Source: Candidatus Moraniibacteriota bacterium (GTDB lineage: Bacteria > Patescibacteriota > Minisyncoccia > Moranbacterales > GCA-2747515). From it: a stretch of 64,000 bases of DNA. Where the stretch lies: the NCBI GenBank assembly GCA_038208115.1, contig JBBQZC010000004.1, forward strand, positions 10,530-74,529. Direction: 5' to 3'. Under the pieces are notes generated by a model. The model worked only from the letters and a program-made list of their open reading frames with translations. It was not told where the DNA came from and searched no databases. How positions within the stretch are numbered: position 1 is the stretch's first letter; each line of letters starts with the position of its first letter. The translations under genes were made by a program, and so were the position numbers. Positions 4,644 through 21,780 of this stretch are shown here, piece by piece.

Positions 4644-4654
4644 ATTTAAAATAT

Positions 4655-5371: not shown

Positions 5372-5399
5372 TCTTCATTTTTAATGCTTAATTAATATA

Positions 5400-6038: not shown

Positions 6039-6046
6039 ATATTATC

Positions 6047-6690: not shown

Positions 6691-7506
6691 CTATAGTAAA
6701 GCCGAGACATACTCTGGATACATATATGTGATCAAAAAAGCGAGGAATAATCCCGTTATGAGAAATGGTCCGAATGGCACTTCTGATTTCATCGTTTTTT
6801 GCCTGAGGAGCATCAGTACGATGCCATATACCGCACCGATACAAAAAGCCAATAATAATGCGACAAACGTCCCGATCGGACCCAGAAGCAATCCAACTGC
6901 AATCGCGACAAATGCATCGCCATACCCCATCCATGTCTCATCAGAATAATAACTCAACCCAAAGAAAAAACAAAAAGCTGTCAATGCGCTCATGCCATGC
7001 AAAAAAGAGGTGCTACTCCATATATCAGTCAGAGGCGGTACATGGTATATGTCTGTAACAATATTTGCAATAACGAGGATGCCAATCGCAAACCACATGA
7101 CATTCATGGGTATCTCCATATATTTTGCGTCATAGACCAATATCACGACCAGACTCGCAAAGACAAATACATATAAAACCGCGACAAGCAGAGAGCTAAT
7201 CGTATGTGTCACAAAAAGATACCCGACACATCCGAAGACACCACTGACTAAAATCTCCACCAATGGATATTGCCATGAGATCTTCTTCGTGCAGTTACGA
7301 CATTTACCACGTAAAATCGCAAAACTTATGACAGGGATATTATCATACCAGAGAATTGGTTTACTACACTTGGGACAATGCGACCTCTCCAATATCATCC
7401 CCTCACCTGTCCGTAAACGACTAATCACCACATTACAAAAACTGCCGATTAAAAGTCCGTATACTACAAAAAAAATTATATAAAGCATATATCTATTACA
7501 ACTCAA
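6691..7506 (-). CDS. pilD: prepilin peptidase (A24 family)
   Basis: Zn-binding 'CPKCSKP...CRNCTKKI' tetracysteine, eight TM segments and the active-site region 'MGYGDAFVAIAVGLLLG'. Confidence 0.9.
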   Translation of the reverse strand: MSCNRYMLYIIFFVVYGLLIGSFCNVVISRLRTGEGMILERSHCPKCSKPILWYDNIPVISFAILRGKCRNCTKKISWQYPLVEILVSGVFGCVGYLFVTHTISSLLVAVLYVFVFASLVVILVYDAKYMEIPMNVMWFAIGILVIANIVTDIYHVPPLTDIWSSTSFLHGMSALTAFCFFFGLSYYSDETWMGYGDAFVAIAVGLLLGPIGTFVALLLAFCIGAVYGIVLMLLRQKTMKSEVPFGPFLITGLFLAFLITYMYPEYVSALL

Positions 7507-7566: not shown

Positions 7567-7983
7567 TTAGCATCCATCACTACTCACAAAACCAGTTTCA
7601 CTATACGTTGCACTTATACAGCTCCCTGCATTGAGCAATCCCGGCGTTGCCACGATCACAAAATGTCCATTATAATTACACTGATCTGTCACTGATATTG
7701 TGCCGATATTATCATCCCCAGGATACACCGCTTCGACTGAGTCCGCATCACTACAGATATTTATAGCAGATCCAGCTCCACTCAATTTATCTTGGATCTC
7801 TTCATTATCATCACAGCACACGATTCCTGCCTTATAGACACTTGACGCACTCGCCTTGAAAGACGCGTCTTTTGCCTTATTGCGGGCAAAATTCAGAGCA
7901 GTCAAAACGATTGTTGCCAAAATACCGATAATCGCTATCGTAACGAGTAATTCGATAAGCGTAAACGCTTTTTTCGTTTGCAT
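7567..7983 (-). CDS. type IV pilin (class III signal, Ala at -1)
   Basis: '[23 protein letters not shown]' N-terminus. C-terminal region has a paired-Cys 'CCDDN' motif and a terminal Cys. No Shine-Dalgarno sequence next to the ATG. Confidence 0.8.
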
Positions 7984-8014
7984 AATGGAAAGACCAAATA
8001 GTTACCTCTCCCCT

Positions 8015-8060
8015 TTGTAATCATCATACCATATTCATGAAAAATTTACAGTATTTTGAA
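8015..8060 (-). promoter_or_regulatory. candidate promoter of the pilin/pilD/minor-pilin operon
   Basis: Minus-strand extended -10 'TGGTATGAT' (plus 8023-8031) with a weak -35 'TGTAAA' 17 nt upstream. Confidence 0.3.
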
Positions 8061-8196
8061 AAAAATTTATCATTTTTTATACAAATGCAAGTACGTAATT
8101 TGACTGATTTATATTTACTGAAGACTTGTTAAAGTCACGGCTAATAATCGTTGAAAAATTGAAATAAAGAGTAATATTGGAATTGAAGAGATTGAA

Positions 8197-8844
8197 TCAA
8201 ATTATTTTTTTGAGAATAAAAAATCTATGATATGCATTAAGCGGATGAGTGAATTCTCTCTCTAAATAAAAAAACTTACTAAGCAATATTCTAAAATCTT
8301 TTAAAGAATAACCTTCTTTACCTAATTCCCAGTAATGTGCACCATCGAATTTATGTTTTTTTTTCAAAAATGGAATATCAAAATACAATACATATTTTGG
8401 TAAAAAACTCACTTCAGCCCATAAGGTAAAGGAAAAGCGATATTGTGGCAAAGATACTAATAGATAATTCTCTGTAATTTCCGAAAATTGTTTCAAAACA
8501 TTTTCTACATCCCTATATCGTATATGTTCCAAAACCTCAAAACATGAAATAATATCAAACTTGTCTTCAACAACATCCTGTATATGAGTAATATCACCTA
8601 TATAATCAGGATTTAATTCATCTGTATTATCAAAAGTTTTGATATCATAACCGCGTTGCTTTAAATATTCACTTATCAAGCCATTCCCTTTTCCAACTTC
8701 AAGTATTTTTGTGTGCTCTTTATCTTTTTTTGCAATATCAATAATAATTTTTTTTTGATTATAATAACTCACAAAACGTGACAACGAATCATAAAATTCA
8801 TCTTCATAAATCTCCTTTGGAAATTGTTCAACATATTTTGACAT
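8197..8844 (-). CDS. class I SAM-dependent methyltransferase
   Basis: Motif I 'ILEVGKGNGLISEYL' with a Rossmann-like beta/alpha pattern. Confidence 0.6.
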   Translation of the reverse strand: MSKYVEQFPKEIYEDEFYDSLSRFVSYYNQKKIIIDIAKKDKEHTKILEVGKGNGLISEYLKQRGYDIKTFDNTDELNPDYIGDITHIQDVVEDKFDIISCFEVLEHIRYRDVENVLKQFSEITENYLLVSLPQYRFSFTLWAEVSFLPKYVLYFDIPFLKKKHKFDGAHYWELGKEGYSLKDFRILLSKFFYLEREFTHPLNAYHRFFILKKII

Positions 8845-8869
8845 AATAATTTACTAAAAAATAACATTT

Positions 8870-10159
8870 CTATTTAACAAATCTCTTAACCACACCTTTT
8901 GCAATCATCAAAGTACCGAGACAATCCAAAACTAATCCCACAAGTATCAAATCAATAGAAACAATATCATAATATACCAAAGCCATATAATAACAAATCA
9001 AAACAAAAACCCGTGGAACAAATAAGAGTAATGTATACCCATAAACGCGATTAGAGTATGTGTTGATTACAGGACTATATAATGAACAAAAGATTGTCAA
9101 AATACCATAAAATGAAAATGAAACATTATACCAAAAATTATATTCATATTGCTTTCCAAAAAACAAAATTGCTATAGAGCTCAGTATAAATAAAAGAAAA
9201 AATGATGGAATAAAGCCTTTTTTAAAAAGTTTATCTATTTTATACACTAAAAGTAATTTATTGTCATGTTGTGCTGCATGCACAAAAAGTACATTCCCTA
9301 TAATAGCTACAGCTAGACCTGCAATTGTCACAGATACCATTGCATACACTGAATAGATACCAAGTGCATCTTGTCCTAAATATCTACCTATTATAAAACG
9401 ATCAGATAAAAGTGCAAAAGAAGAAATTAGAGAACTGCTAGCAAATAAAATGCCTGACTTCATAATCTTGTATGAAATTTTACCACTAACATATTTTAAG
9501 CTGAAATAAGACATAAAACTTTTGCCATATAAAATTATGACAAAAAAACTACTCCCTGCAATTGAAAGAATAAAATATTCAAAACTTGTCTTCAAAAAAA
9601 TTAAAAGAAAAACAGTGCAAAAAATAAATGCCACAATAGATTCTAACGCTCTATAAAATGCTTGTTTTTTAAAAAGCGAAACACCGCGTGCAAGACCTTC
9701 AAGAAAAAATTTAAAACTATAAATAATAATGAGACCAAAAGTAATCCACACAAGAGTTTTATGAAATTCATTAAAATATCCAACAAATTTTAAAACTATA
9801 AACAAACTCAATCCACAAAAAAATAAACTTAATAACATCACGGCAAGTGCTGAAGATACATAGCTTTTCCGTTTATTTGGATTTGCACGAGCGAGCTCTT
9901 TGGTTAGTGACATATCAATGCCACTAGCACAAAATGTGCGTAGTGTATTTGCAGCAAGAAAAACAAAACTAGCAATACCATACTGTTCAGGACCCATCAT
10001 TCTGCCAGAAACTACATGTACAAAAAACATCACAACACTTGCAAATAAAACACCCACGGAAGACCATTTTAGATTTTTTTTTAATTGAGGATTCACCAAA
10101 TTTCCTCCTCTATTTTTTAATAGTAAATAGTACTTTGAAAATATCATACGATTATGCAT
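8870..10159 (-). CDS. polysaccharide biosynthesis membrane protein (Wzx/MOP-type flippase-like)
   Basis: 429 aa with about 12 predicted TM helices, inside the glycosyltransferase cluster. Confidence 0.45.
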   Translation of the reverse strand: MHNRMIFSKYYLLLKNRGGNLVNPQLKKNLKWSSVGVLFASVVMFFVHVVSGRMMGPEQYGIASFVFLAANTLRTFCASGIDMSLTKELARANPNKRKSYVSSALAVMLLSLFFCGLSLFIVLKFVGYFNEFHKTLVWITFGLIIIYSFKFFLEGLARGVSLFKKQAFYRALESIVAFIFCTVFLLIFLKTSFEYFILSIAGSSFFVIILYGKSFMSYFSLKYVSGKISYKIMKSGILFASSSLISSFALLSDRFIIGRYLGQDALGIYSVYAMVSVTIAGLAVAIIGNVLFVHAAQHDNKLLLVYKIDKLFKKGFIPSFFLLFILSSIAILFFGKQYEYNFWYNVSFSFYGILTIFCSLYSPVINTYSNRVYGYTLLLFVPRVFVLICYYMALVYYDIVSIDLILVGLVLDCLGTLMIAKGVVKRFVK

Positions 10160-10811
10160 TTTTTTTCATAATAAGCATATATCCAGTTTTTTTAGGATTA
10201 TTTATACCAAAACGATGCAATACGTTAAAAATAACATAGAACGCCCATAATACTGTCTCAGCTGAATATGCAAATAATTGCTGCCGTCGATATACTAACG
10301 CAATTTTTTTATATGAAATCCTCATATCATCATACGTTCTTTGTGCTCCATCAGATTCTAAATAATGCAAAATGGCCTCCGGGTGATACGGTTTGACATG
10401 TGTAAAATCATTATAAAACCCATTGTGCAGCATAGGAGTTCTCAAACAAAATATGCCCCCAGGTTTCAAAACTCTATCAATTTCCTTTATTATGGCATAT
10501 GCTTCTTTTGGAAGTAAATGTTCAATAACATGTGCACAATGCACTGCGTCAAACTGCTGATCTTTAAAAGGTAATTGCGTAACATCACCTGAGATAACAT
10601 GGTATCCTTTCTGTTGACAAATCTTCAAACTTTTTTCATTTTGATCAATGCCCTCAATTCTTTTAGGATCATTACTAATAAATCTCCCTTCTCCACACCC
10701 AACATCTAAGATTTTTTTACAATTTATCATATATTTCAAAGCAATTTTATCCCGATCTGCTTTTTGATTATAAATCATTTTTTTTCTATATTTTTCTAAA
10801 AAAATATTCAT
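10152..10811 (-). CDS. class I SAM-dependent methyltransferase
   Basis: 'ILDVGCGEGRF' motif I, followed by 'FDAVHCAHVIEHL' and 'LKPGG' motifs. Confidence 0.65.
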   Translation of the reverse strand: MNIFLEKYRKKMIYNQKADRDKIALKYMINCKKILDVGCGEGRFISNDPKRIEGIDQNEKSLKICQQKGYHVISGDVTQLPFKDQQFDAVHCAHVIEHLLPKEAYAIIKEIDRVLKPGGIFCLRTPMLHNGFYNDFTHVKPYHPEAILHYLESDGAQRTYDDMRISYKKIALVYRRQQLFAYSAETVLWAFYVIFNVLHRFGINNPKKTGYMLIMKKNA

Positions 10812-10927
10812 ATTGATCTGATACTTAGATTACAACTTTCTTATAAAACTATAGCATAAATAAAAATACTTCGCACCAAAAAATTGTGCTATAATATTCA
10901 AACCATAAGAAGATATAAAAAATGTAA

Positions 10928-11677
10928 ATGTCTGCTAGAAAAATCCAAAAAAAATCCAATATTGTCGTCTATACAGCCATATTTGGAAATTATGATGTGC
11001 TAAACAAAGTGCCTCACAATATTAATTGTGATTTTGTCTGTTTTACTGATAATTCTCAATTAAAATCAAAAAAATTTGATATTAGACTTGTAGAGTCAAC
11101 ACATTCCGATTCCACACGAAATGCTCGCATGTATAAAGTTTTGCCACACAAATTTTTATCAGAATATAAATATTCAATATGGATTGACGCTTCTATGAAA
11201 TTGAAAAAAAACTTTGATCCAGAAAAAATGATTGAGAAATATTTAAAAAATGAAAAGTTTGCAATTTTTAAACATGATGAGAGAGATTGCGTTTATGATG
11301 AATTTGAAATATGCATTAAACATAAAAGAGATAACGTCGTCGTCATGCAAAAACAGAGAGATTTTTATAAAGAGTCAAACTATCCGAAGCACACTGGGTT
11401 AGTTTCTTCAGGATTTATAATTCGTGAGCACAATGATCCACATATCTCAAACTTTGATGACATGTGGTGGAAAGAAATTTGTAAATTTAGCAAAAGAGAT
11501 CAATTAAGTTTTAATTATGTTGCACACAAAATTAATTTACACTACACAAAAATAGAAGGTAATATTTTTAATAACAAAAATTTCTTTTATGTTGGTCATA
11601 ATGGATTTACACCAAGATACCGTGCTTTTATGAAACACGCACTGACATTTCTCAATAAAATCAATCCTCTAAAATAA
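10928..11677 (+). CDS. DUF616-like putative glycosyltransferase
   Basis: 'VVYTAIFGNYDVL...CFTDN' resembles the TOD1/DUF616 family. It is the only plus-strand gene in the cluster. Confidence 0.35.
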   Translation: MSARKIQKKSNIVVYTAIFGNYDVLNKVPHNINCDFVCFTDNSQLKSKKFDIRLVESTHSDSTRNARMYKVLPHKFLSEYKYSIWIDASMKLKKNFDPEKMIEKYLKNEKFAIFKHDERDCVYDEFEICIKHKRDNVVVMQKQRDFYKESNYPKHTGLVSSGFIIREHNDPHISNFDDMWWKEICKFSKRDQLSFNYVAHKINLHYTKIEGNIFNNKNFFYVGHNGFTPRYRAFMKHALTFLNKINPLK

Positions 11678-11679
11678 AG

Positions 11680-12699
11680 TTATTTCTTTGATGCAATAAA
11701 ACCAATGCCGAATTTTTCGAACCACATGGCAAAATCCGAATTTACCCTTCGTTTTTGAATATATCTTCTTTTTTTGAGTATTATAAACATATTATACACC
11801 ACATCTGTAAATCCTTTCACTGTCACGATAAGCAAATCCCAAGTGCCGACATTGTTTTGAAAACGATTTACTATGCCCTTTCCTCTGAGTGCCAGCACGA
11901 GCAAATACGGATACCGTAGTACAGAATAAAACAACGCTTTGAGGCAATATATATGAGGATAATTTTTGATGATATTGTAATAAAGATTTCTATTGGTATG
12001 AAATGCGATAAATTTGGAGTATCCACCTGATGTCGCATTTTTGTGATGATATACTACCGATAGTGGGTTGTAAACGCACTGCCATCCACGCAACCGTGCA
12101 CGCCACCCCATATCCAGATCCTCGAGATAATATGCGTAGCTCTCATCAAAATACATCCCATCTTGTTTAATATCGTTTAATAATTCCACACTAAAAGCAG
12201 CCGCAGCTCCAGCAGGACAAAAAACTTCACATCGCTCATTACCCTTGTCAGATGACTCATGTAACAATCGATTGACAGCCAAACCGTCTTTTGTGATGAT
12301 GAGTCCTGCCGAATCAAACTGATCCCTATGCGTGTGAAAAAGGATCTTTGGTGCGACCATGCCAATTTTTTTTTCTACATTAATTTCAGCAACTATCTCT
12401 CGGATAAAATGTTCATCCACTTCCGTATCATTGTTGAGCAAGATGACATTTTCACATCCATCATCGATTGCACGCTGTATCCCGACGTTATTTGCCTTAC
12501 AAAAACCAGAATTATACCCCATCTCGATCAATATCACATTATCATATGCATCACGGACAAGTTCGATCGATCCATCTGTAGATCCATTATCCACCACAAA
12601 GATTACATGCTCACACGGCTCTGCATCACGCAATGACCGTAGACATTTATTCAAAAGGTCTTTTCTATTATAGTTGACGATTATTATTGCGTTTTTCAT
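11680..12699 (-). CDS. family 2 glycosyltransferase
   Basis: 'IIVNYNRKDLLNKCLRSL...VVDNGSTDGS' and a 'DxD'-region typical of the GT-A fold. Confidence 0.8.
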   Translation of the reverse strand: MKNAIIIVNYNRKDLLNKCLRSLRDAEPCEHVIFVVDNGSTDGSIELVRDAYDNVILIEMGYNSGFCKANNVGIQRAIDDGCENVILLNNDTEVDEHFIREIVAEINVEKKIGMVAPKILFHTHRDQFDSAGLIITKDGLAVNRLLHESSDKGNERCEVFCPAGAAAAFSVELLNDIKQDGMYFDESYAYYLEDLDMGWRARLRGWQCVYNPLSVVYHHKNATSGGYSKFIAFHTNRNLYYNIIKNYPHIYCLKALFYSVLRYPYLLVLALRGKGIVNRFQNNVGTWDLLIVTVKGFTDVVYNMFIILKKRRYIQKRRVNSDFAMWFEKFGIGFIASKK

Positions 12700-13910
12700 G
12701 AATTGAATTTTTCCTGTGTAAAAAATGCCGATATCTTTTTTTGCATCGGACCACGTGCATACAGTTCTGATTCTGCGAGGGCCCCACGCACCAATGTTGC
12801 TAATTGCACTTGGGCATTTGCACCATATAATACATCATACACCTTATCAGAGAGATCGTGCACATCTGTACAGACAAATCCATTGATATCGTTTTTTACC
12901 AATTCCGCAGATGCATTATCTGGATACGCGATTACAAAAACCGGCAACCCACATGCATTCGCCTCGACTACGGTAATCCCAAATCCTTCACGTTCTGATG
13001 GCTGGATCATAACTTTGGCTGATTTGATATGTGTAATCAATGCCACATAATCATCGACAAAATCGATGAGATCGATATTTTCATGCAATTTTTTAATCGT
13101 GATTAGATCGCTAATGCGTCCTCTATCTGGACCATCTCCGATGATAAGTGCTCGCAGAGGCGTGTCCAGTGACAGAGATTTTTCCACCACTTCCACGATA
13201 TGCTCGACATGCTTATGCGCGATGATCCGTCCATAATAGATGATATCGTATTTTTTTTCTTGCAGTGGCACACTGTTTATCGTTTCAGCATCGATATATG
13301 TCGGTGGCAGGATCGTGATCTTTTTTGCAGTTGATCCAAATGCGTGTACAATCTTTTTTTGCGTAAAATATGAAATCGCGAGGATGTGGTCAACAGCCAT
13401 ATAACTCAATTTCTCCAAAAAAACACCCAACCACCAGTAGTATGGATAGTATTTTTTCCAGTAATCTTTCCCCCAATATTCTGCCCAATTACCGATGATG
13501 ACTGGTTTTTTCTTTTTAAAAAATACTGCCACACGTGCAAAGATTAATGGAAAATACGGGAAAACATTGATAAACAAGATATCCTCATCACAGCGCAAAA
13601 CCCAAAAAAAAGTTGTGATACCAAACCACAGACTCACCATGCTGTTTCTTTTGTTGTTTTTTTTATAAATTGGTAATTTTGCACAAATACCCACATAAGT
13701 GATATCATCTTTAATCATGGTCGTCGCACCATCCCACTGCGTCATAGTAATGATTTTGACGACATTTTCTTGTGCGACGATTGTGGCATAATCATAGATC
13801 ATCTTCTCCTGCCCACCATAAAAATATGGATAAACACTCTCTGTGATGAAAGCGATCTTTTTCATAGATGTATTATTTAATTCTATTGAGCAAAACGACC
13901 AACTCATCAT
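12696..13910 (-). CDS. family 1/4 glycosyltransferase (GT-B)
   Basis: C-terminal 'EGFGITVVEANACGLPV' (EX7E-type motif). Confidence 0.75.
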   Translation of the reverse strand: MMSWSFCSIELNNTSMKKIAFITESVYPYFYGGQEKMIYDYATIVAQENVVKIITMTQWDGATTMIKDDITYVGICAKLPIYKKNNKRNSMVSLWFGITTFFWVLRCDEDILFINVFPYFPLIFARVAVFFKKKKPVIIGNWAEYWGKDYWKKYYPYYWWLGVFLEKLSYMAVDHILAISYFTQKKIVHAFGSTAKKITILPPTYIDAETINSVPLQEKKYDIIYYGRIIAHKHVEHIVEVVEKSLSLDTPLRALIIGDGPDRGRISDLITIKKLHENIDLIDFVDDYVALITHIKSAKVMIQPSEREGFGITVVEANACGLPVFVIAYPDNASAELVKNDINGFVCTDVHDLSDKVYDVLYGANAQVQLATLVRGALAESELYARGPMQKKISAFFTQEKFNS

Positions 13911-14784
13911 GTCGACGCTTGATAGAACTCAAGATCAAACCAGAAATACCACTGATCAGTCCTGCGATGAAAAGAAAGCCAGAAACGATAAGTGACGGTA
14001 TCCGCGTCACGAGTCCTGTCGCAAAATACTCTGCAGTACCTACCCAACCCAATACCGCTCCACTCAAGAAACACGCTCCTGCCAGAAAAGTAAAAAATTG
14101 TAACGGCTTGTAATCCCGAAAAAGTGATACGAGCGTATAGAGAGCGATCGTGCCATCCCGCACAGCGTTGATCTTGGAGTGACTCCCCTTGGGTCGTGGA
14201 GCAAGTGCTATCGACACTTCTTTGACGACCATCCCTTTTTCGACAGCTTGAATCGTCAATTCTGGCTCAATCGAAAATCCCCCAGCCAATAGCGCAGTAG
14301 AATTCATAAATCGCTTGTTCATCACGCGCAAGCCCGATTGCATATCGTTAAACCGCGTACGAAAGAACATATTGAGCACTGCATTGAGAAATTTATTACC
14401 AAACCAATGACTTGTACTAAATGCCGTGCGATTGGTTGTGACCATTCGATTTCCCACCGCCATATCTGCGATGTCTTTTACAATCAGGTCAATCAGTATG
14501 TGCACATCGATTGCCCGATATGTATCATCCCCATCCACAAGCACGAAGATGTCCTCGCGAAATTCCTCGAGTGATCTTTGTACCGCATGTCCTTTACCTT
14601 GTTTTTTTTCAAAAACGACCTCTGCGCCTGCTTTACGTGCTTTGATTTGCGTTTTGTCAGTAGAATTATTATCCACCACGAGGATGCGTGCATGTGGCAA
14701 TTCTTTTTTGAAATCTCTGACGACTTTTTCGATTGTTTTTTCTTCGTTGTAACACGGGATCACGACAATGATTTTTTCATTCAT
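13873..14784 (-). CDS. polyprenyl-phosphate glycosyltransferase (GtrB/DPM1-like GT2)
   Basis: 'VVIPCYNEEKTIEKVV...VVDNNSTDKT', a DxD motif and two C-terminal TM helices, characteristic of GtrB/ArnC-type enzymes. Confidence 0.75.
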   Translation of the reverse strand: MNEKIIVVIPCYNEEKTIEKVVRDFKKELPHARILVVDNNSTDKTQIKARKAGAEVVFEKKQGKGHAVQRSLEEFREDIFVLVDGDDTYRAIDVHILIDLIVKDIADMAVGNRMVTTNRTAFSTSHWFGNKFLNAVLNMFFRTRFNDMQSGLRVMNKRFMNSTALLAGGFSIEPELTIQAVEKGMVVKEVSIALAPRPKGSHSKINAVRDGTIALYTLVSLFRDYKPLQFFTFLAGACFLSGAVLGWVGTAEYFATGLVTRIPSLIVSGFLFIAGLISGISGLILSSIKRRHDELVVLLNRIK

Positions 14785-14788
14785 ACTA

Positions 14789-16552
14789 TTATTTTAACTT
14801 AAATACAGTATAAGACATATAGTCCCCCTTAAATTTATCAGACCAGACTTCATAATAATCTTCGATCAATTCTGGGCTCATAGCAATCGTACGGCTCAAT
14901 TCTTCTGAATTTGAGAGGATTATGCGTGCACCGAAGTCGTTTTTGATCGAATTAATGACCTTTTCACTATTTTCTTTCCGAAAAGCATTTCTTGTTTCTG
15001 CATCTGTTCTCTTGACCATCAATTCATCGTACAATTCATCTCTACATGCCTTTGGTAACTCACAATAATATTTGGTTGCAAAAATATTATAATACTTCCA
15101 ATACAATGATTCATCATATGCTTTAAGCGCCAGAGGCTCGATCCCCATAGAGTATCGATTATGTGAATTTTCAAAAAACATCAAACTGAAATAACTCCAG
15201 TTATGCAGATACACCTTCTCCCCATCCTCTGAATGTTCATCGATCCATTGTGCTGCTAATCGTGCTGGCTGATAGTCAAATGTATTGGACTTTGTATAGA
15301 TCACCATCAATGACTGTGCACACAAAGCCAATACAATGAGCCACATGAAGATCACAAATCCTTTGCCCGCAAAAAATCGTTGTGGGATTAATTGTGTATC
15401 GAGTAACGCTGTAATCGTAAAGCCCATCAAAAGCACCAGAGACGGTGCAACAAAATCGAGAAGTCGCCCCGTGACCATATACGAGCCTCCGATCATACAG
15501 AGTAAAAAGATTGTCAAACAACACAACCAGTGCATCTGACGTGTACGTAATGATCCATTGATCACATGATCTTCTTTTTTATAGAGATAATACATATATC
15601 CCACTGCCATCGTACAAAAGATCACTGCAACGCCCGTAATTGCTTGAGTAAACGTATAGGACATCAGATTTGACGTGGCCATCTCATTACCTCCGAGAGA
15701 TCCATTTGCATTATCGACGCTATTTTGTCGTATCGCAAAAATCCATAGTAGCCATGCATACAATGATTTTGGAAATCCTGGGAAAAATATCATCCCACAT
15801 ACGATGCCACCGAGAGCGATCAGGAAATTTTTTATATCAATCTTCTTCTCAACGAGATATCGAGATACCTCTACTACACCCACAATGACAAGTGGCAAAA
15901 AATACGTCGATTGATGCCAGAGGACATGCACAAGAACTACAAAAAAGAGTGGTACATACTTCTTACGGATCGCAAAATACATCTCTAAGAAAACGAGTCC
16001 AATCATCAGGACAAGTGCTCGTCCGAGCAAAATCCTCGACAAAAAAAATATCGATCCTATGAGGAGTAGTGCAAAAAAAAGCGGATGACGCACCCTCTCT
16101 TTGCGCATGATGAAATATAACAGAGCAACCACGACACTCCCATAAAACGCATCCGCCACATGTAACCCAAAAAGCCAATCGGTAAAATACGTAAATGGGA
16201 TCAGTGACACTTGGAAAAGACTGACTGTATAACGACTACCCCCATCAGCACCATGCCCAGAAAGATAAATCCAATCAAAATGATTTACGGCATCCAATCC
16301 CTCAGTGCGCAATAAATATGCGTACTTGAAGTGAAAGTAATGATCGTCAAAGATCGGATCACCCTCCGCAAGAGCATAAATTGTCGTCAATGTGCCAAAA
16401 AACACGAGAAAGAATATCCCCGATGCAATGAGTGGATTATCCCATATTTTTTTGACAAAAAAAGCACATCGATCGCACAAACGATACAGGATATGCTGAG
16501 ATTGATCATCACGTGTAGTACTCTTTGTCTTTTTTTTACGCTTCTTTTTCAT
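14789..16552 (-). CDS. GT-C fold membrane glycosyltransferase (ArnT/PMT-like), paralog A
   Basis: About 11 TM helices. First loop 'GDPIFDDHYFHFKYAYLL' resembles the ArnT/PMT DE-x-x-Y/F motif. C-terminal ~150-aa soluble domain. Clear paralog of the next gene. Confidence 0.5.
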   Translation of the reverse strand: MKKKRKKKTKSTTRDDQSQHILYRLCDRCAFFVKKIWDNPLIASGIFFLVFFGTLTTIYALAEGDPIFDDHYFHFKYAYLLRTEGLDAVNHFDWIYLSGHGADGGSRYTVSLFQVSLIPFTYFTDWLFGLHVADAFYGSVVVALLYFIMRKERVRHPLFFALLLIGSIFFLSRILLGRALVLMIGLVFLEMYFAIRKKYVPLFFVVLVHVLWHQSTYFLPLVIVGVVEVSRYLVEKKIDIKNFLIALGGIVCGMIFFPGFPKSLYAWLLWIFAIRQNSVDNANGSLGGNEMATSNLMSYTFTQAITGVAVIFCTMAVGYMYYLYKKEDHVINGSLRTRQMHWLCCLTIFLLCMIGGSYMVTGRLLDFVAPSLVLLMGFTITALLDTQLIPQRFFAGKGFVIFMWLIVLALCAQSLMVIYTKSNTFDYQPARLAAQWIDEHSEDGEKVYLHNWSYFSLMFFENSHNRYSMGIEPLALKAYDESLYWKYYNIFATKYYCELPKACRDELYDELMVKRTDAETRNAFRKENSEKVINSIKNDFGARIILSNSEELSRTIAMSPELIEDYYEVWSDKFKGDYMSYTVFKLK

Positions 16553-16556
16553 ATAA

Positions 16557-18254
16557 TCATTTTAACTTAAATACGGTAAAAGACATATGTGGTCCACTGA
16601 ATTTTTCCGAATCAACGTGATACCAGGTGTCGATGAGCTCAGGGCTCGCCAAGATGACATCATCAAATTTTTGCGAATCAGATACGATAAATTTTGCATC
16701 AAAATCATTCCTGATGGAATTGATGACTTTTTTACTGTTGTTTTTTGAAAATTTTTCTTTATATGACGGATCTTTATTTTCCATCTGCACCATCGCCTTA
16801 TCCAATACATCACCGCAATCGCCTTCTCCTTCACAATACGCACTATGTGCAAGCATATTATAATATTTCCAATACAATGTCTTGTCATAACCTTTGAGTG
16901 CTGCTGGTTCAATACCTGTAGAATAGACATTTTTTGTATTACCAAAAAACATCAAACTAAAATTGCCCCAATTGTGCAGATAGACTTTTTCCCGTCCATC
17001 AGAATGATCACTGATCCACTGCGCTGCTGCTCGCGCAGGTGTATAATCGTACGTGTTAGATTTTGCATACATGTAGATCATCGTGTTAGCACACAAGACG
17101 AGTAACCACATCCAACAGATTGCAACAATCCATTTATGAAATTGCACATTGATCGTAAACATGCCAGACTCACGCAATATCGTCACGACAAAAGCAAAAA
17201 GTAATACAAGTGTCAGTAAAACAAAGTCAAAAAATCGTCCACTCACAGCAGTTGCGCCATATGTAACAACTAATAAAAAGATGAACAACGTATACAGCCA
17301 TTGAAATCGATGTGCATCTTTTACGTGCACAAGGACACCATCTTTTTTTCGTGCGATATAAATAAATATTACAGAAGTCACACACACAACAAAAACAAAG
17401 AAAACAAATTCCTGACCGACAAAATACGTCATAAAATCCTTTGTGGCTAACTCCGCACCACTCAGTGAGCCACTTGTTGCACTTGCGTCGCCACCTTGGA
17501 TGACGAAGATCCACTGCAGCCAACTAAAAAGTGACCCAGGAAAACCGGGGAAAAACATCATACCGACGACCGTTGCACCAGCAGTTGTCATGATCGTTTT
17601 ACCATCACATTTCTCATGTGCCACATATCGTGCGATCTCTGCGATTCCGACGATAATCAGTGGTAAAAAAAACGTGGTTTGATGCCACAAGACATGTAAT
17701 AATGCGACAAAAAACAATGGAACATACTTCCGATGGATTGCACAATACATCTCGAGAAATATCAACCCGGTCATCAATACAAAAGATCGTCCGAGGAGAA
17801 ATCGTGCAATAAAATACGATGATGTGAGGAGGAGTAACGTAAAAAATAACGGATTTTGTACACGCTCTTTGCGCAAAATATAATACACGATGGCGATCAC
17901 CAGACTCATATAAAAAGCAATTGCCACATGCATGCCAAAAAGTTGATCATCAAAATACGTAAATGGGATCAGTGATACATGATAAAGATTGACAGCATAG
18001 CGAATGCCATCTTCTCCACTAGACGTGAGATAAATCCAATCAAATTTTTGTACGACATTCCACCCCTGTGTACGCAATAGCTCTGCATATCTGAAGTGGA
18101 AATATTCATCATCAGGCACAGGATCACCATCAGAAATCCCAAAAATCGTGACAAAAAAAGAAAATATCACTACAAAAAAAATCGTTGACGCAATAAGCGG
18201 ACGACCCCAGTATGTGTGAAAATTTCGTATTATTGTGTTTTTTTCCATATCCAT
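16557..18254 (-). CDS. GT-C fold membrane glycosyltransferase (ArnT/PMT-like), paralog B
   Basis: 'GDPVPDDEYFHFRYAELL' loop motif. Collinear about 55% identity with the 14789-16552 product, including the C-terminal 'YDYxPARxAAQWI...KVYLHNW...TVFKLK'. Confidence 0.5.
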   Translation of the reverse strand: MDMEKNTIIRNFHTYWGRPLIASTIFFVVIFSFFVTIFGISDGDPVPDDEYFHFRYAELLRTQGWNVVQKFDWIYLTSSGEDGIRYAVNLYHVSLIPFTYFDDQLFGMHVAIAFYMSLVIAIVYYILRKERVQNPLFFTLLLLTSSYFIARFLLGRSFVLMTGLIFLEMYCAIHRKYVPLFFVALLHVLWHQTTFFLPLIIVGIAEIARYVAHEKCDGKTIMTTAGATVVGMMFFPGFPGSLFSWLQWIFVIQGGDASATSGSLSGAELATKDFMTYFVGQEFVFFVFVVCVTSVIFIYIARKKDGVLVHVKDAHRFQWLYTLFIFLLVVTYGATAVSGRFFDFVLLTLVLLFAFVVTILRESGMFTINVQFHKWIVAICWMWLLVLCANTMIYMYAKSNTYDYTPARAAAQWISDHSDGREKVYLHNWGNFSLMFFGNTKNVYSTGIEPAALKGYDKTLYWKYYNMLAHSAYCEGEGDCGDVLDKAMVQMENKDPSYKEKFSKNNSKKVINSIRNDFDAKFIVSDSQKFDDVILASPELIDTWYHVDSEKFSGPHMSFTVFKLK

Positions 18255-18335
18255 CGATCAAATCAGCATTATCTTTCTCAAAAAACTCTCTATACTTGCC
18301 GTTTATCATTAAACAGCAAGTATAAGAATTTTCTA

Positions 18336-18737
18336 CTAACAACCTGTGTCGTTAAAAGTACATCCTACTTGCGTGCATATTGCTCTAGCGCATTCAGCTG
18401 CACCGAAACTTGCTGTATACTTAAAGTCACCACTTCCATCAGCTAAAGTCACGTCAGTTGCTCCTGTCCAGTTTCCAGATGGATCCAAAAGTGGCCATTG
18501 TGCCTCACTACCTGCACACATTGAGCTTCTCACCGTTGCTGATGAAGGGGTCACAAGGTTCAGATTATCATCCATACACAGAATTGCTCCTGGAACTGTT
18601 GATGAAATTGATGACTTCACAGATGCATCCTTAGCTTTTTGTCGTGCACTGTTCAACGATACCAAAACAATAGATGCTAAGATACCGATGATCGCGATCA
18701 CGATCAAAAGTTCAATTAATGTAAAACCTTTTTTCAT
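18336..18737 (-). CDS. pilA: type IV pilin (probable major pilin)
   Basis: '[25 protein letters not shown]' canonical class III signal with G-1. Strong SD 'GGAGGTG' 7 nt upstream. C-terminal Cys pairs. Confidence 0.85.
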
Positions 18738-18913: not shown

Positions 18914-20122
18914 TTATAATTGTCCTGCGATATTATAAATCGGTAGCAAAACGGAAAACACCAACACACCGACACCCAGACCGAGAATTACGATCAAGAT
19001 TGGCTCAATGATTGATGACAAGTTTCGTGTGATTTGATCCACTTCTGACGTATAAAATCGTGCGATGTCTTCCAGGATATCACTCATACGCCCTGTTTCT
19101 TCTCCGATCTTAATCATGCTGGATACCATCGGAGGTATTTCTTCATGTTTGAAAAATTCTTTATTGATCTCACCACCCACTTTTACATCTTGCGCAGATT
19201 TCAAAATAATATTTTTATAGACGATATTATCCACGACATCAGCTACGACGATGAGCGCACGCACAATCGGGATACCACCCTTGAGAAGTACAGAGAGGTT
19301 TTCTGCAAAACGCGTAATGTAGACATAGCGAAATAATTGTCCGACAACGGGAATACGCAACTTGATACGATCCCATTCTCTACTCCCTTCTTCAGATCGC
19401 GCATAGTAGATCATCGATGCAATCACACCAACGATAACGACCAACACAGCCCACCAATACACCTGCATGAAATCCCCTATTTTGATCATCAAATTTGTAT
19501 ACCATGGGATCTCCACATTGAGATCTTTGATCACTTGTGTCAATTTCGGTAATATCCATGTCATCGTCAAAAATCCGATCACAGATGCTACACTGATCAC
19601 AAAAATCGGATACATCAGTGCTCCACGCACTTTACTTTTCAATTGATAATTTTGTTCTGCGCTTTCCGCGACAAAATCGATTGCTCCTTGCAAATTACCA
19701 GAAACTTCTCCAGCTCTGATCATGCTCACGGCAAGTGTCGTAAATATATTTTCATGTTTTGCAAAGCTCTCCGAGATCGACATACCATCCTCCACATCTG
19801 CAGCTACCTCAGTAACCACGATCCGCAACTGTGCATTTTCTGTCTGTGCATGGATCGTACGTAATGATGGTGCGATCGGAATCTTTGCACCCACAAGTGT
19901 CGATAACTGTCGATAAAAAAGCAAGAGATCTTTTTGCGTCACTGATGCTGTCAATCTTTCGATTGCAGACACTATCGATGTGCCCTGCTTGAATTCTTTT
20001 AATTCAATTGGGATGAGATCATTTTTTTGCAACAGCTTGGTCGCTGTTTCTTTGTCAATTGCCTCGATCTTTCCGCGCTTCACTTCGCCAGTTTGTGTCT
20101 GCGCCTTAAATTTAAATTGCAT
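18914..20122 (-). CDS. pilC: type IV pilus platform protein PilC/GspF
   Basis: 402 aa with two GspF repeats and three TM segments. Ends 'LLPIYNIAGQL'. Confidence 0.9.
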   Translation of the reverse strand: MQFKFKAQTQTGEVKRGKIEAIDKETATKLLQKNDLIPIELKEFKQGTSIVSAIERLTASVTQKDLLLFYRQLSTLVGAKIPIAPSLRTIHAQTENAQLRIVVTEVAADVEDGMSISESFAKHENIFTTLAVSMIRAGEVSGNLQGAIDFVAESAEQNYQLKSKVRGALMYPIFVISVASVIGFLTMTWILPKLTQVIKDLNVEIPWYTNLMIKIGDFMQVYWWAVLVVIVGVIASMIYYARSEEGSREWDRIKLRIPVVGQLFRYVYITRFAENLSVLLKGGIPIVRALIVVADVVDNIVYKNIILKSAQDVKVGGEINKEFFKHEEIPPMVSSMIKIGEETGRMSDILEDIARFYTSEVDQITRNLSSIIEPILIVILGLGVGVLVFSVLLPIYNIAGQL

Positions 20123-20259: not shown

Positions 20260-21360
20260 CTATTCATCAATATGGATTTGTTCACCACGACCGACTAACA
20301 TACGGACATAATCACGATTTTTTGCATATGTCATAGCTTGCTCCAATGTGATATGACCCGCCTGCAATAATTCCGCGAGAGATTTGTCCAGTGAAATCAT
20401 ACCGTCTTTTGAACTGGTTTCAATGACTGTGTCAATCTGATATGTTTTATCTTCACGTATCAAGTTTTCGATTGCGTGATTTTTGATCATGATCTCCACC
20501 GCCGGAATACGACCGCCATTTGTATGCGGGATCAAACGTTGTGACATGACACCTAAAAGTACATTTGATAACTGTGAACGGATCTGATTTTGCTGATGTG
20601 ATGGAAATGTATCGACGATACGATCGATCGTTTGTGCTGAATCATTTGTATGCAATGTTGCAAAAATCAGATGGCCCGTCTCAGCTGCAGTGATCGCCGT
20701 ACCGATTGTCTCGAGATCGCGCATCTCACCGATGAGAATCACATTCGTATCTTCACGAAGTGCCGCACGCAAAGCGCCTGAAAATGTCTGTGAATCCTGT
20801 CCGATTTCACGCTGATTGATAATACAGAGATCTTGCTCATACATATATTCGATCGGATCCTCAATCGTGATAATATGGTTTTTCTTATTATGATTGATAT
20901 AATCCACCAACGCAGCGAGCGTCGTCGACTTTCCATGACCGACTGGTCCTGTGACGAGGAAGAGTCCCTGAGAGAAATTTGCAAACTCATATACGAGTTG
21001 TGGCACACCCAATTCATCGAGTTGTCGGATTTTGCTGTTGATCACACGCATAACGATTCCCACATACCCTCTTTGATAAAAGACATTTGTACGAAAACGG
21101 ACTTTATCTTCTAGGCTATATGAAAAATCGATCTCTCCGTTCTGTAGAAATTTTTCTTTATGATGTGCATTCATGAAATAATCTGCAAATGCCTTTGTGT
21201 CCTCTGGAAGCAAAGCTGCCTCCTGTTCCAATGGGATCAATTTCCCGTCAATACGCAAGGTCGGATGTCGACCGACGGCAAAATGCAAATCTGATGCATT
21301 TTGTTGTGCACCGAGTCGCAATAAATTTTTCAACCGCTGTTCTACATGTAATGAGCTCAT
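20260..21360 (-). CDS. pilT: twitching-motility/retraction ATPase PilT
   Basis: N-terminus 'LRLGAQQNASDLHF', Walker A 'GPVGHGKSTT' and His/Asp boxes. 366 aa, typical PilT size. Confidence 0.9.
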   Translation of the reverse strand: MSSLHVEQRLKNLLRLGAQQNASDLHFAVGRHPTLRIDGKLIPLEQEAALLPEDTKAFADYFMNAHHKEKFLQNGEIDFSYSLEDKVRFRTNVFYQRGYVGIVMRVINSKIRQLDELGVPQLVYEFANFSQGLFLVTGPVGHGKSTTLAALVDYINHNKKNHIITIEDPIEYMYEQDLCIINQREIGQDSQTFSGALRAALREDTNVILIGEMRDLETIGTAITAAETGHLIFATLHTNDSAQTIDRIVDTFPSHQQNQIRSQLSNVLLGVMSQRLIPHTNGGRIPAVEIMIKNHAIENLIREDKTYQIDTVIETSSKDGMISLDKSLAELLQAGHITLEQAMTYAKNRDYVRMLVGRGEQIHIDE

Positions 21361-21384: not shown

Positions 21385-21780
21385 CTATAGCATGTATTTT
21401 TGCACTTTTGCCAAAACTTCTGATGGTGTAAAATGTGATTTGATCAAAAAATCCTTTGCACCCAGTGCCATGCCACGATCCACATCTTCCTTTTGTGATA
21501 AATTCGTCAAAAGCACAACTGGAATTCCTTTCCACTCTTCACGATGACTGATGGCTTCCAAAACATCGAATCCATCCATGTATGGCATCACAATATCCAA
21601 GAGCATAATGTGTGGTCGCACACCTGCTTCCAATTTTTCGATCGCATCTCTACCATTATTTGCCAAAACGACATTGTATCCAGCATCTTTCAATTTCACT
21701 TCATAAATATCCCCGATAAATGCATCATCTTCAGCGATCATGATCGTCTTTTTTTCTTGCTGTAATTCTTCTTGTGTCAT
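21385..21780 (-). CDS. single-domain response regulator (CheY-like receiver, PilH-like)
   Basis: 'IMIAEDDAFIG...LLDIVMPYMDGFDVL...PVVLLTNL...K' contains the receiver-domain acid pocket, T/S and K. Confidence 0.85.
   Translation of the reverse strand: MTQEELQQEKKTIMIAEDDAFIGDIYEVKLKDAGYNVVLANNGRDAIEKLEAGVRPHIMLLDIVMPYMDGFDVLEAISHREEWKGIPVVLLTNLSQKEDVDRGMALGAKDFLIKSHFTPSEVLAKVQKYML

Follow-up and report, generated by a model that had tools for sequence, protein, structure and literature searches.

STT3/AglB-related GT-C proteins of an undescribed family encoded within a type IV pilus operon of a Candidatus Moraniibacteriota bacterium

Introduction

In N-glycosylation by STT3, AglB and PglB (CAZy GT66), the Asp of the WWDYG motif reads the +2 Ser/Thr of the sequon, and in Haloferax AglJ begins the glycan on dolichyl monophosphate. 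The Haloferax volcanii Agl N-glycosylation cluster comprises AglJ, AglG/I/E, AglP, AglR, AglB and AglS (PMC3871713). TfpW arabinosylates the pilin of Pseudomonas aeruginosa group IV strains, O-glycosylating it from a cytoplasm-made polyprenyl-phosphate sugar (bioRxiv 10.1101/2020.04.19.049825). The three-component systems (GtrA/GtrB/GtrX, GacI/GacJ/GacK/GacL, CsbB/YfhO) put a single sugar on O-antigen, rhamnan or teichoic acids; the GacI/K/L trio of GT2, Wzx and GT-C decorates a wall polysaccharide, not protein (bioRxiv 10.1101/180810).

Here we analyse a 64,000-nucleotide stretch of DNA (the window) from a Candidatus Moraniibacteriota bacterium, an uncultured and ultrasmall member of the CPR, in which a first-pass annotation had proposed a pilin glycosylation system.

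Results

A glycan cassette between two pilus gene clusters

The window contains a glycan cassette flanked by pilin1 (pilA) on one side and pilin2-pilD on the other, and lying, as first described, between two pilus gene clusters. The pilin, the two multi-pass paralogs and the GT2 were all found on the minus strand where the first-pass annotation had placed them. The upstream pilus motor genes were named from the Pfam labels of syntenic orthologues.

6691..7506, minus strand: PilD prepilin peptidase (A24_N_bact and Peptidase_A24)
7567..7983, minus strand: pilin2, second type IV pilin
8197..8844, minus strand: second methyltransferase, final gene of the low-GC distal cassette
8870..10159, minus strand: Wzx/AglR/GacK-type flippase (Polysacc_synt, PF01943, E 1e-23)
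10152..10811, minus strand: SAM-dependent methyltransferase
10928..11677, plus (opposite) strand: TOD1/MUCI70-like putative glycosyltransferase (PF04765, E 2.8e-29)
11680..12699, minus strand: second GT2, rhamnosyltransferase-like
12696..13910, minus strand: GT4 glycosyltransferase, cytoplasmic; its real start is probably the Met of MKKIAF near 13865
13873..14784, minus strand: GT2 polyprenyl-phosphate sugar synthase, DPM1/GtrB/AglJ type (PF00535, AglJ model, PDB match)
14789..16552, minus strand: paralog B, 587 aa, architecture as paralog A
16557..18254, minus strand: paralog A, 565 aa, STT3/AglB-like GT-C of an unannotated family
18272..18335, minus strand: terminator-like hairpin and U-run in the pilin1/paralog A gap, located by folding (stem 18325..18290)
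18336..18737, minus strand: pilin1, major type IV pilin, 133 aa (N_methyl and TIGR02532)
18914-20122, minus strand: PilC, upstream pilus motor gene
20260-21360, minus strand: PilT, upstream pilus motor gene
21385-21780, minus strand: response regulator, among the upstream pilus motor genes
21799-23649, minus strand: PilB, upstream pilus motor gene

The genes for paralog A, paralog B and the GT2 are spaced 4 nt apart, and the distal half of the cassette has a GC content of 0.28-0.30. A profile search of the window cluster turned up neither a Wzy_C domain nor an O-antigen ligase, nor any further candidate transferase. An initiating phosphoglycosyltransferase is absent from every cluster examined, an absence compatible with a glycan built on a monophosphate carrier.

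Pilin1 begins with the class III signal MKKG/FTLIE and carries an N_methyl motif (Pfam E 1.2e-8; TIGR02532 E 3.6e-10), six Cys residues and a conserved Ser-rich stretch of 10 residues. Two N-x-S/T sequons occur in the window pilin; in an alignment of pilin orthologues no sequon position is conserved, and the major pilins of loci L001 and L003 contain none. The Shine-Dalgarno sequence of pilin1 is GGAGGTGA. The strong promoter claimed for this gene amounts to a 9/12 hexamer match, and such matches are no commoner there than in shuffled sequence. The hairpin between pilin1 and paralog A, previously called weak, is a strong, conserved terminator-like element: its dG is -27.5 kcal/mol (z = -8.3), a U-run comes after it, and six related loci (L001, L003, L004, L006, L009 and L012) share it, with compensated stem changes in L012.

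The assignment of the GT2 as a DPM1/GtrB/AglJ-type polyprenyl-phosphate sugar synthase is borne out by its matches to PF00535 (E 1.7e-20), to the AglJ model TIGR04182 (E 6e-61; 206 bits, under the 325-bit equivalog cutoff and in this unlike Haloferax AglJ) and, as best PDB match, to the P. furiosus Dol-P-Man synthase DPMS (5mlz, E 1.5e-9). A hydropathy scan places two hydrophobic helices at its C-terminus.

Paralogs A and B belong to an undescribed family related to STT3/AglB/PglB

Paralogs A and B share 52% identity across 553 residues (576 bits, far beyond chance), and both contain the first-loop motifs quoted for them; paralog B is a member of an old, separately conserved paralog clade. In the predicted topology the N-terminus is positively charged, about 11 TM helices follow and, in paralog A, some 165 aa form an alpha/beta domain on the outer face; two Cys are conserved in this C-terminal domain. 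Key residues of paralog A are D49, R151, R156, E268, R340, D343, W413, W429, C474 and C480. All 37 close relatives have D49, and across 126 diverse ones its conservation is 97%. Neither paralog matches Pfam, NCBIfam or PDB sequences: GT39, GT83, Wzy_C, the STT3 models and the remaining HMM families all miss.

Independent AlphaFold models of the two paralogs, both of high confidence (pLDDT 85 and 91), have clear GT-C folds, which, with the conserved first-loop Asp, upholds the GT-C identity; neither profiles nor models assign them to a non-glycosyltransferase family. Their top structural matches are AglB, STT3B, PglB, DPY19 and Pmt4; Foldseek ranks PglB and STT3 highest (E 5e-6 to 1e-4, TM up to 0.61), and for the C-terminal domain the match is to the globular domain of AglB. 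In hhalign comparisons E268 aligns with PglB E319 and yeast STT3 E350, R340 with PglB R375 and yeast R404, D49 with yeast D47, and W413/W429 with W501/W517; these matches are colinear, and each by itself is weak (probability 2-19%, E 1e-3 to 2e-2). Across the family at large, conservation of the mapped residues is 88-98%. On these weak alignments, D49, E268 and R340 appear to be the counterparts of the catalytic Asp, Glu and Arg in STT3/PglB.

Local sequence features are shared as well. The loop-1 motif D-x-[YW]-F-[HN]-[FY]-[KR] resembles FDPWFNYR in STT3, the Glu in the flexible outer loop has a Pro at +3 as in SVSEHQP, a W..N..W stretch aligns with the lead-in of WWDYG, and the terminal strand VFKLK recalls IYRLK in PglB. 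In contrast to STT3/PglB, whose TM helices number 13, the paralogs have about 11 and a degenerate WWDYG motif (NWGNF, NWSYF) in which the Asp is replaced by Gly in A and Ser in B and is never Asp in the 37 clade members. Where STT3 has its second acidic motif (DNE), the paralogs have two Arg and nothing equivalent; they are partnered with a polyprenyl-monophosphate sugar synthase, not with a diphosphate-linked pathway; and acceptor sequons are not conserved. The paralogs are an undescribed family, distant kin of the STT3/AglB/PglB oligosaccharyltransferases. These enzymes and DPY19 are their nearest relatives, and the first annotation's likeness to ArnT or PMT in particular does not hold.

Distribution and gene neighbourhoods of the family

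The GT-C family comprises about 1,900 cluster representatives, which come from CPR, Chloroflexota and Nitrospinota; none is annotated. The NCBIfam archaeal STT3 model TIGR04154 is matched by 12 of 80 distant members (best E 1.2e-10), linking the family to STT3 by sequence. A DPM1/AglJ-type GT2 lies directly downstream of the GT-C in 11/11 distinct Moraniibacteriota loci that reach past the GT-C, and is fused to the GT-C N-terminus in six family members (P0095, P0097, P0116, P0146, P0190 and P0193).

Each Moraniibacteriota relative examined retains the order pilin, GT-C, GT2, so that the proposed pilin adjacency stands among close relatives. In the window, as in each relative with a long enough flank, pilA lies on one side of the cassette and pilin2-pilD on the other. 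The first-pass annotation suggested that each paralog might serve one pilin; the GT-C copies number from 1 to 3, with a similar pilin set throughout. The cassette content differs by genome (NeuB and CMP-sugar synthase, epimerase, or methyltransferases). Such variable content and the low-GC distal half are typical of surface-glycan islands.

Outside Moraniibacteriota the adjacency does not extend. No type IV pilin was found near the GT-C in L014, in Paceibacteria-like CPR or in Anaerolineales, and a pilin acceptor is therefore argued from clade-specific synteny only. Since the pilin-adjacent loci come from one clade in which synteny is generally conserved, they are not independent observations. 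In L014 (35% identical) the GT-C adjoins a GT2 and a GacJ-like DUF2304 protein, with a Mur ligase nearby. The Anaerolineales homologues stand alone, adjoining an ECF sigma factor, and no GT2 gene was called beside the GT-C in L016 and L020.

Comparison with described systems

The cluster resembles the Haloferax agl genes in bringing together an AglJ-like GT2, further GT2 and GT4 enzymes, SAM methyltransferases, a Wzx-like flippase and STT3-like GT-Cs. It differs in that its host is a CPR bacterium and its target is probably not a sequon Asn; assembly of a lipid-borne oligosaccharide is here predicted from gene content. As with TfpW, the major pilin gene is followed directly by the gene for a GT-C-type membrane enzyme with loop 1 and a large C-terminal domain outward. 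By description TfpW stands apart, resembling Emb/Aft arabinosyltransferases, including their proline-rich motif, and its donor genes (DprE1/2, GtrA-like protein) map to other parts of the genome. Here the enzymes are STT3-like and present as a pair, and the pilus operon contains an entire glycan cassette of variable content.

The combination of GT2 synthase, Wzx-like flippase (cf. GacK) and GT-C is shared with the three-component systems; L014 also has a GacJ-type DUF2304 partner, and GT2::GT-C fusions occur within the present family. The GT-Cs of the three-component systems belong to other families and lack an AglB-type domain. PglL/TfpO (PilO) systems also pair a pilin-adjacent transferase with a Wzx-flipped lipid-linked glycan and a variable cassette, but the present cluster has no Wzy_C domain and its enzymes differ in fold and family.

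Discussion

We favour, with moderate confidence, an outer-face glycosylation system that uses a polyprenyl-phosphate-linked sugar donor, lies inside a type IV pilus operon and probably acts on pilins. Counting against it are the confinement of the pilin adjacency to one clade, the strong terminator after pilin1, the absence of an initiating phosphoglycosyltransferase and the weakness of the single hhalign matches. The first-pass proposal survives in its GT2 type, GT-C fold and synteny within the clade, and is corrected on its ArnT/PMT kinship, its weak hairpin and the reach of its pilin adjacency. The same enzymology could instead serve another acceptor (an envelope glycopolymer, a glycolipid, or surface proteins such as an S-layer protein), as in GacL, YfhO or Gtr-type systems, with the pilus-operon site a functionally meaningless inherited synteny. 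We consider this possible, if doubtful. The strong conserved terminator divides pilin from GT-C genes, the GT2, Wzx and GT-C trio is exactly the GacI/K/L design, and the conserved partner across CPR is the GT2, not a pilin; the pilin-free L014 locus beside a Mur ligase mirrors GacL/GacI/GacJ (10.1101/180810), and the solitary Anaerolineales genes agree. Against a wall polymer, the cassette lacks an initiating transferase, ABC transporter, Wzy and LCP ligase. The precise insertion between pilA and pilin2-pilD in all Moraniibacteriota seen, despite content turnover, argues against this alternative, as do the mostly protein-modifying structural kin (AglB, STT3, PglB, DPY19, PMT) and the AglB-type C-terminal domain, which binds peptide in oligosaccharyltransferases.

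That the paralogs are canonical N-linked oligosaccharyltransferases, AglB/PglB equivalents passing a preassembled glycan to sequon Asn of the pilin, is highly improbable. STT3/AglB/PglB are indeed the top structural and HMM kin, with the catalytic residues aligned to conserved positions; the AglJ-like starter, further transferases, methyltransferases and flippase parallel the Haloferax agl cluster (PMC3871713), and the window pilin has its two sequons. The missing WWDYG Asp, the sequon-free pilins of L001 and L003, the lack of a conserved sequon position, the helix count and the failure of any STT3 model to match the window proteins all speak against it. We give least credence, and very little, to Wzy/EpsG-like polymerases, flippases or scaffolds that would act on lipid-linked glycan and transfer nothing to a final acceptor. 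In favour of this reading are weak EpsG Pfam matches, in 6/80 distant members and one L002 copy, and the proposal that TfpW combines polymerase and transferase (10.1101/2020.04.19.049825). The matches score far under the gathering score (19 vs 30 bits), and the conserved loop-1 Asp, loop Glu and AglB-like outer domain suit a transferase.

In the favoured outer-face system acting on pilins, the DPM1/AglJ-type GT2 would, by homology, move sugar from a nucleotide sugar to polyprenyl phosphate at the cytoplasmic face. The co-operonic GT4, second GT2, TOD1-like enzyme and two methyltransferases may then extend and methylate the lipid-linked sugar, a step modelled on the Haloferax Agl pathway, and the Wzx-like protein would flip the product. 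The two STT3/AglB-like GT-Cs, in whose models loop 1 (D49), the flexible E268 loop, R340 and the disulfide-containing C-terminal domain are predicted to face outward, would pass the glycan to outer-face acceptors. Judged solely by gene position, these acceptors are probably the type IV pilins encoded on either side, and the linkage would probably be to Ser/Thr or non-canonical sites rather than to N-x-S/T. The old paralogs A and B probably differ in the acceptor site or the glycan that they handle.

Organization of the pilus operon and its glycan cassette

Gene calls and domain matches reveal a complete type IV pilus operon on the minus strand of the window, with a cassette of glycan genes placed between two pilin genes, pilin1 (pilA) and pilin2. 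The first-pass annotation had proposed that pilin1, two GT-C glycosyltransferases (paralogs A and B) and a GtrB-like GT2 synthase form a pilin glycosylation system; the minus-strand gene calls agree with its gene coordinates and quoted motifs.

Features of the pilus operon and glycan cassette (window positions, in gene order)
26361-27491, minus strand: RecA
25241-26287, minus strand: PilM
24409-25206 and 23656-24369, minus strand: two unannotated ORFs, in the slots of PilO-type proteins in related loci
21799-23649, minus strand: PilB
21385-21780, minus strand: stand-alone response regulator receiver, between PilB and PilT
Between the response regulator and PilC, minus strand: PilT
18914-20122, minus strand: PilC
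18336-18737, minus strand: pilin1, 133 aa
16557-18254, minus strand: paralog A, 565 aa
14789-16552, minus strand: paralog B, 587 aa
13873-14784, minus strand: GT2 of the DPM1/GtrB/AglJ type
Downstream of the GT2, minus strand: GT4, second GT2, methyltransferase, Wzx-type flippase, another methyltransferase
Within the cassette, opposite strand: TOD1/MUCI70-like gene
7567-7983, minus strand: pilin2
6691-7506, minus strand: PilD, prepilin peptidase
3219-6658, minus strand, after PilD: three minor pilins and a LamG-domain pilin-like protein (474 aa, C-terminal LamG/concanavalin-like)

Pilin1 has a class III signal (MKKG, with Gly at -1, a hydrophobic residue at +1 and Glu at +5) followed by a hydrophobic helix, matches the N_methyl profile (E 1.2e-8) and shares its operon with PilD, PilB, PilC, PilT and PilM. 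The genes for A, B and the GT2 are spaced by 4 nt each. Read as its longest ORF, the GT4 gene overlaps the GT2 gene by 38 nt (13865-13910). Its translation probably begins some 15 codons further in, at the Met of MKKIAFITES, and the two genes then no longer overlap. The same LamG-domain protein also follows the minor pilins in two related loci (L004 and L005; L-numbers denote loci from other genomes that carry GT-C homologues) and may be a pilus-tip adhesin.

The signals around pilin1 differ in part from their initial description. Its Shine-Dalgarno sequence, GGAGGTGA, is real. The promoter described as strong matches the consensus hexamers at only 9 of 12 positions, and such matches are no commoner in the region than in shuffled sequence. 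The hairpin 3' of the gene, taken at first for a weak one, is strong, with a folding energy of -27.5 kcal/mol (z = -8.3 against shuffles); together with the U-run after it, it occupies 18272-18335 (minus strand). A post-pilin hairpin recurs in six related loci (L001, L003, L004, L006, L009 and L012), conserved in sequence in five of them and with a fully compensated stem in L012. A terminator or attenuator is expected downstream of a highly expressed major pilin, and this element is likely a conserved one that sets the ratio of pilin to downstream expression.

The GT2 belongs with the DPM1/GtrB/AglJ-type polyprenyl-phosphate sugar synthases

The assignment of the GT2 as a GtrB/DPM1-type donor synthase is borne out by several comparisons. 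The protein matches PF00535 (E 1.7e-20) and, over its full length (residues 5-294), the AglJ model TIGR04182 (E 6e-61, 206 bits); since this score is below the equivalog cutoff of 325, we regard it as a relative of AglJ and not an orthologue. It also matches PpgS (E 1.8e-21) and a haloarchaeal Dol-P-hexose transferase (E 4.8e-21), and its best relative in the PDB is the Dol-P-Man synthase of P. furiosus (DPMS, 5mlz; E 1.5e-9). Hydropathy places two transmembrane helices at the C terminus (228-246 and 266-284).

Elsewhere in the window, a ManC-like nucleotidyltransferase (35884-37104, minus strand; NTP_transferase plus ManC beta-helix) could, speculatively, supply GDP-mannose to the DPM1-like GT2. 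A 1126-aa protein (39792-43172, minus strand) fuses GH18 chitinase-like, CE4 polysaccharide deacetylase and chitin-synthase/PgaC-like GT2 domains, an unusual all-in-one architecture for poly-GlcNAc synthesis and remodelling.

Paralogs A and B have a GT-C fold and belong to a large unannotated family

A and B are indeed paralogs, 52% identical over 553 residues. A neighbor-joining tree puts them in two distinct clades that both include orthologues of other genomes, which marks the duplication as old and maintained. Pfam and NCBIfam scans of both returned only noise (COX7B, Hok; E about 0.09). The ArnT (GT83) or PMT (GT39) identity first suggested for them found no match to the PMT, PMT_2 or ArnT profile HMMs. 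Sequence searches of the PDB gave a single spurious match to centaurin with a profile of the close family and, with a profile of distant members, GT2 chains only, reached through fused domains.

A word-indexed search of 5.8 billion proteins found 37 close relatives (the clade), all unnamed and from Moraniibacteriota/Parcubacteria MAGs. An exhaustive profile search of 1.84 billion cluster representatives returned 1,933 at E <= 1e-3 and 1,141 at E <= 1e-10. A repeat search for protein homologues with a diverse 126-sequence alignment (the broad family) recovered almost only the same clade. The 183 sequences retrieved all detect one another by BLASTP and therefore constitute one large unannotated family; where members are named, they derive from MAGs of Portnoybacteria, Anaerolineales and Nitrospinae.

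AlphaFold models built on the family alignments (A, pLDDT 85.5 and pTM 0.85; B, pLDDT 90.8 and pTM 0.90) predict the polytopic membrane fold common to solved GT-C enzymes, with a C-terminal globular domain of the AglB type. All 14 Foldseek matches of model A in the PDB at E <= 0.001 are GT-C enzymes, headed by PglB (4.7e-6) and by yeast and human STT3 (TM scores up to 0.61). The GT-C assignment stands, with STT3/AglB/PglB and DPY19 as the nearest relatives and not ArnT/PMT specifically.

From model secondary structure and hydropathy, A and B are predicted to have about 11 transmembrane helices, compared with 13 in STT3. Their N-termini are strongly basic, which orients loop 1 outward, and the odd number of helices then puts the C-terminal domain, with its two invariant Cys, outside as well.

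Candidate catalytic residues align weakly with those of oligosaccharyltransferases

A and B themselves do not reach the threshold of the STT3 family HMM (GT66, PF02516); neither has any Pfam or NCBIfam match. Among distant members, 12 of 80 match the archaeal STT3 model TIGR04154 (best E 1.2e-10; for example P0133, 7.1e-8, and P0097, 7.4e-7, over the central membrane region), at only 18-31 bits against a cutoff of 450.

We compared profiles (hhalign) with authentic PDB sequences of PglB from C. lari and of STT3 from yeast. The sole alignment with PglB (E 1.2e-3) places E268 on the TIXE glutamate, E319, and R340 on the diphosphate-binding arginine, R375. With yeast STT3 (E 0.024, 206 columns), E268 falls on E350 of SVSEHQP, with Pro at +3 in both, R340 on R404, W413 on W501 and W429 on W517, the second Trp of WWDYG. 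The N-terminal part aligned with four eukaryotic STT3 proteins (E 0.018), D49 on D47 and K/R55 on R53, giving a shared loop-1 motif D-x-[YW]-F-[HN]-[FY]-[KR]; it gave no alignment with PglB alone. These matches are individually weak (E 1e-3 to 2e-2, probability 2-19%), yet they are colinear and fall on known catalytic residues. The aligned positions are also the most conserved of the family: E268 (98%), R340 (97%), W429 (88%) and the acidic D49 at the start of the first outer loop (97% of the 126 sequences and invariant in the 37 relatives). Model A has a single long stretch of low confidence (residues 250-266), in the loop bearing E268, which in this resembles the mobile EL5 of oligosaccharyltransferases.

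The WWDYG motif itself is absent: A has HNWGNF at the aligned positions, B HNWSYF. STT3 recognises the +2 Ser/Thr of the sequon through the Asp that follows the Trp. All 37 clade members have G, S or T there, and across the broad family Asp occurs in only 42%. Unlike STT3, A and B have no counterpart of the second acidic motif.

Gene order is conserved in Moraniibacteriota and the distal cassette is variable

A search for related loci with the close alignment recovered only 7 Moraniibacteriota loci. All Moraniibacteriota loci whose flanks are long enough (L001-L006, L008, L009 and L011-L013) show the order PilB, response regulator, PilT, PilC, pilin and one to three GT-C genes. An AglJ-like GT2 and further glycosyltransferases follow in all 11 loci that extend past the GT-C genes (L008 stops just past them, with a GT2b-like match alone at its edge), and pilin2 and PilD come next wherever the flank reaches. 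The proposed pilin, GT-C, GtrB order is kept in the Moraniibacteriota loci covered here, and the adjacency to type IV pilins is specific to this clade. The stand-alone response regulator receiver between PilB and PilT is likewise kept in every Moraniibacteriota locus. Record labels place three MAGs with a pilus and glycan locus of the Moraniibacteriota type (L009, L012 and L014) in Micavibrio or Bdellovibrionales, probably a taxonomic mislabelling.

Clade genomes carry one to three GT-C copies (three in L002; one in L004, L005 and L011). In L002 (10001-16321) an extra GT2 lies between copies 1 and 2. The distal cassette differs by genome, with NeuB and a CMP-sugar synthase in L006, an epimerase in L004 and methyltransferases elsewhere. 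In the window, GC content falls to 0.28-0.30 over 8000-12000, where Wzx, the TOD1-like gene and the two methyltransferases lie, from about 0.40 in the surrounding sequence; a drop of this sort is the usual signature of an exchangeable surface-glycan island. Together, the low GC and differing content suggest horizontal exchange of the distal glycan genes.

Homologues in other lineages

In Paceibacteria-like CPR genomes, the GT-C homologue is convergent to arrays of two or three VirB2-like T4SS_pilin genes (L015, 9712-10572; L017, 9711-10881; L018, 4579-5729; L019, 4515-5665), a second association of the family with genes for filament subunits; the L018 and L019 homologues carry an AglJ-type GT2 fused at the N-terminus. 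At L014 (9947-12724), a 35%-identical homologue follows a MurD-like ligase and precedes a 226-aa GT2 and a DUF2304 protein, with no pilin in the vicinity. DUF2304 is the GacJ family, activators of Und-P-sugar synthases (bioRxiv 10.1101/180810), and the set resembles the GacL/GacI/GacJ module for wall-polysaccharide decoration. In two Anaerolineales MAGs (L016, 7328-11263; L020, 7026-11367), the homologue has a small protein on one side (DUF5666 in L020, without Pfam match in L016) and an ECF sigma factor on the other, beyond which comes a DUF5667 protein. Both MAGs share this order, and neither pilin nor GT2 nor glycan genes were called near the homologue. The recurrent CPR partner of the GT-C enzyme is the GT2 synthase, since the two genes lie side by side in Moraniibacteriota and in L014, and six proteins are fusions of the two. 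The putative donor is a polyprenyl-phosphate-linked sugar, which this adjacent or fused DPM1/AglJ-type GT2 would make.

Proposed pathway and acceptor

In the proposed pathway, the GT2 would charge polyprenyl phosphate with a sugar, which the GT4, second GT2, TOD1-like enzyme and methyltransferases may elaborate on the lipid; the Wzx-like protein would flip the lipid-linked glycan, and A and B would carry out the transfer at the outer face. The Haloferax pathway has comparable steps: the N-glycan is begun by AglJ on dolichyl monophosphate, lengthened by AglG, AglI and AglE and methylated by AglP; a Wzx-like protein takes part in translocation, and the final transfer is the work of AglB (PMC3871713). 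The window cluster encodes no phosphoglycosyltransferase, which fits a monophosphate-primed pathway, and no Wzy_C (PF04932), ligase, polymerase or other candidate for the final transfer; Wzy_C is also absent from the called genes of L001-L007. A 479-aa protein after Wzx in L006, considered as a hidden ligase or polymerase or as a GT-C relative, matched neither. GacL, PMT, DPY19 and TfpW move a single sugar and AglB an oligosaccharide. That a single sugar was the ancestral mode is favoured by the GT2 fusions and by the minimal two- or three-gene modules of distant relatives; the flippase-bearing cassette favours an oligosaccharide as the unit transferred here.

Pilins are the most economical guess for the acceptor because every clade member has the cassette inserted between pilA and pilin2-pilD. 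It is unlikely that the pilin undergoes canonical N-glycosylation: no N-x-S/T is conserved at any position among nine pilins, none at all occurs in the major pilins of L001 and L003, and the missing WWDYG Asp agrees. A Ser-rich stretch of 10 residues is conserved in both pilin types and is, speculatively, a candidate O-site. The main rival, less likely but appreciable, is a role in decorating some other target, whether a wall glycopolymer, a lipid or a different surface protein, in the way that GacI/J/K/L modify rhamnan; the L014 module speaks for such a role, and the placement of the cassette in the clade for the pilins. The fullest form of the pilin reading, put forward as a long shot, is that a CPR offshoot of STT3/AglB that has lost sequon reading, served, as in haloarchaea, by an AglJ-like starter on polyprenyl monophosphate, attaches an oligosaccharide, already assembled and methylated, as one block to type IV pilins, at sites outside sequons that may be O-linked. 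If true, this would be archaeal-style protein glycosylation with a new acceptor chemistry, and the family, about 1,900 clusters in CPR, Chloroflexota and Nitrospinota, would amount to a class of protein glycosyltransferases that has gone unrecognised.

Novelty and significance

The combination of polyprenyl-phosphate sugar synthase, flippase and GT-C enzyme is of a known kind, as are pilin-adjacent glycosylation genes (TfpW, TfpO, PglL); the likeness to TfpW-type enzymes is an analogy of gene order. New are a large, HMM-invisible, STT3-like GT-C lineage in bacteria without the sequon-reading motif, and a GT-C duplication inside a CPR pilus operon with an Agl-like cassette. A full-text literature search found no description of the GT-C family or of CPR pilin glycosylation enzymes, and no report on surface decoration of CPR type IV pili. 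O-glycosylation of TM7x pilins has been put forward from GlycoPP prediction only (PMC12206443).

The family bridges STT3-type oligosaccharyltransferases and GT-C enzymes that use polyprenyl monophosphates and could inform oligosaccharyltransferase evolution. It may also supply sequon-unrestricted transferases for glycoengineering, and the system, a pilin with one or two GT-C genes and one GT2, is small enough for reconstitution in E. coli. Of the organelles by which the ultrasmall episymbiotic CPR bacteria attach to their hosts, type IV pili are the best documented (PMC12206443), and a variable glycan cassette built into their operon would be an obvious factor in setting host range and in evading phages or immunity.
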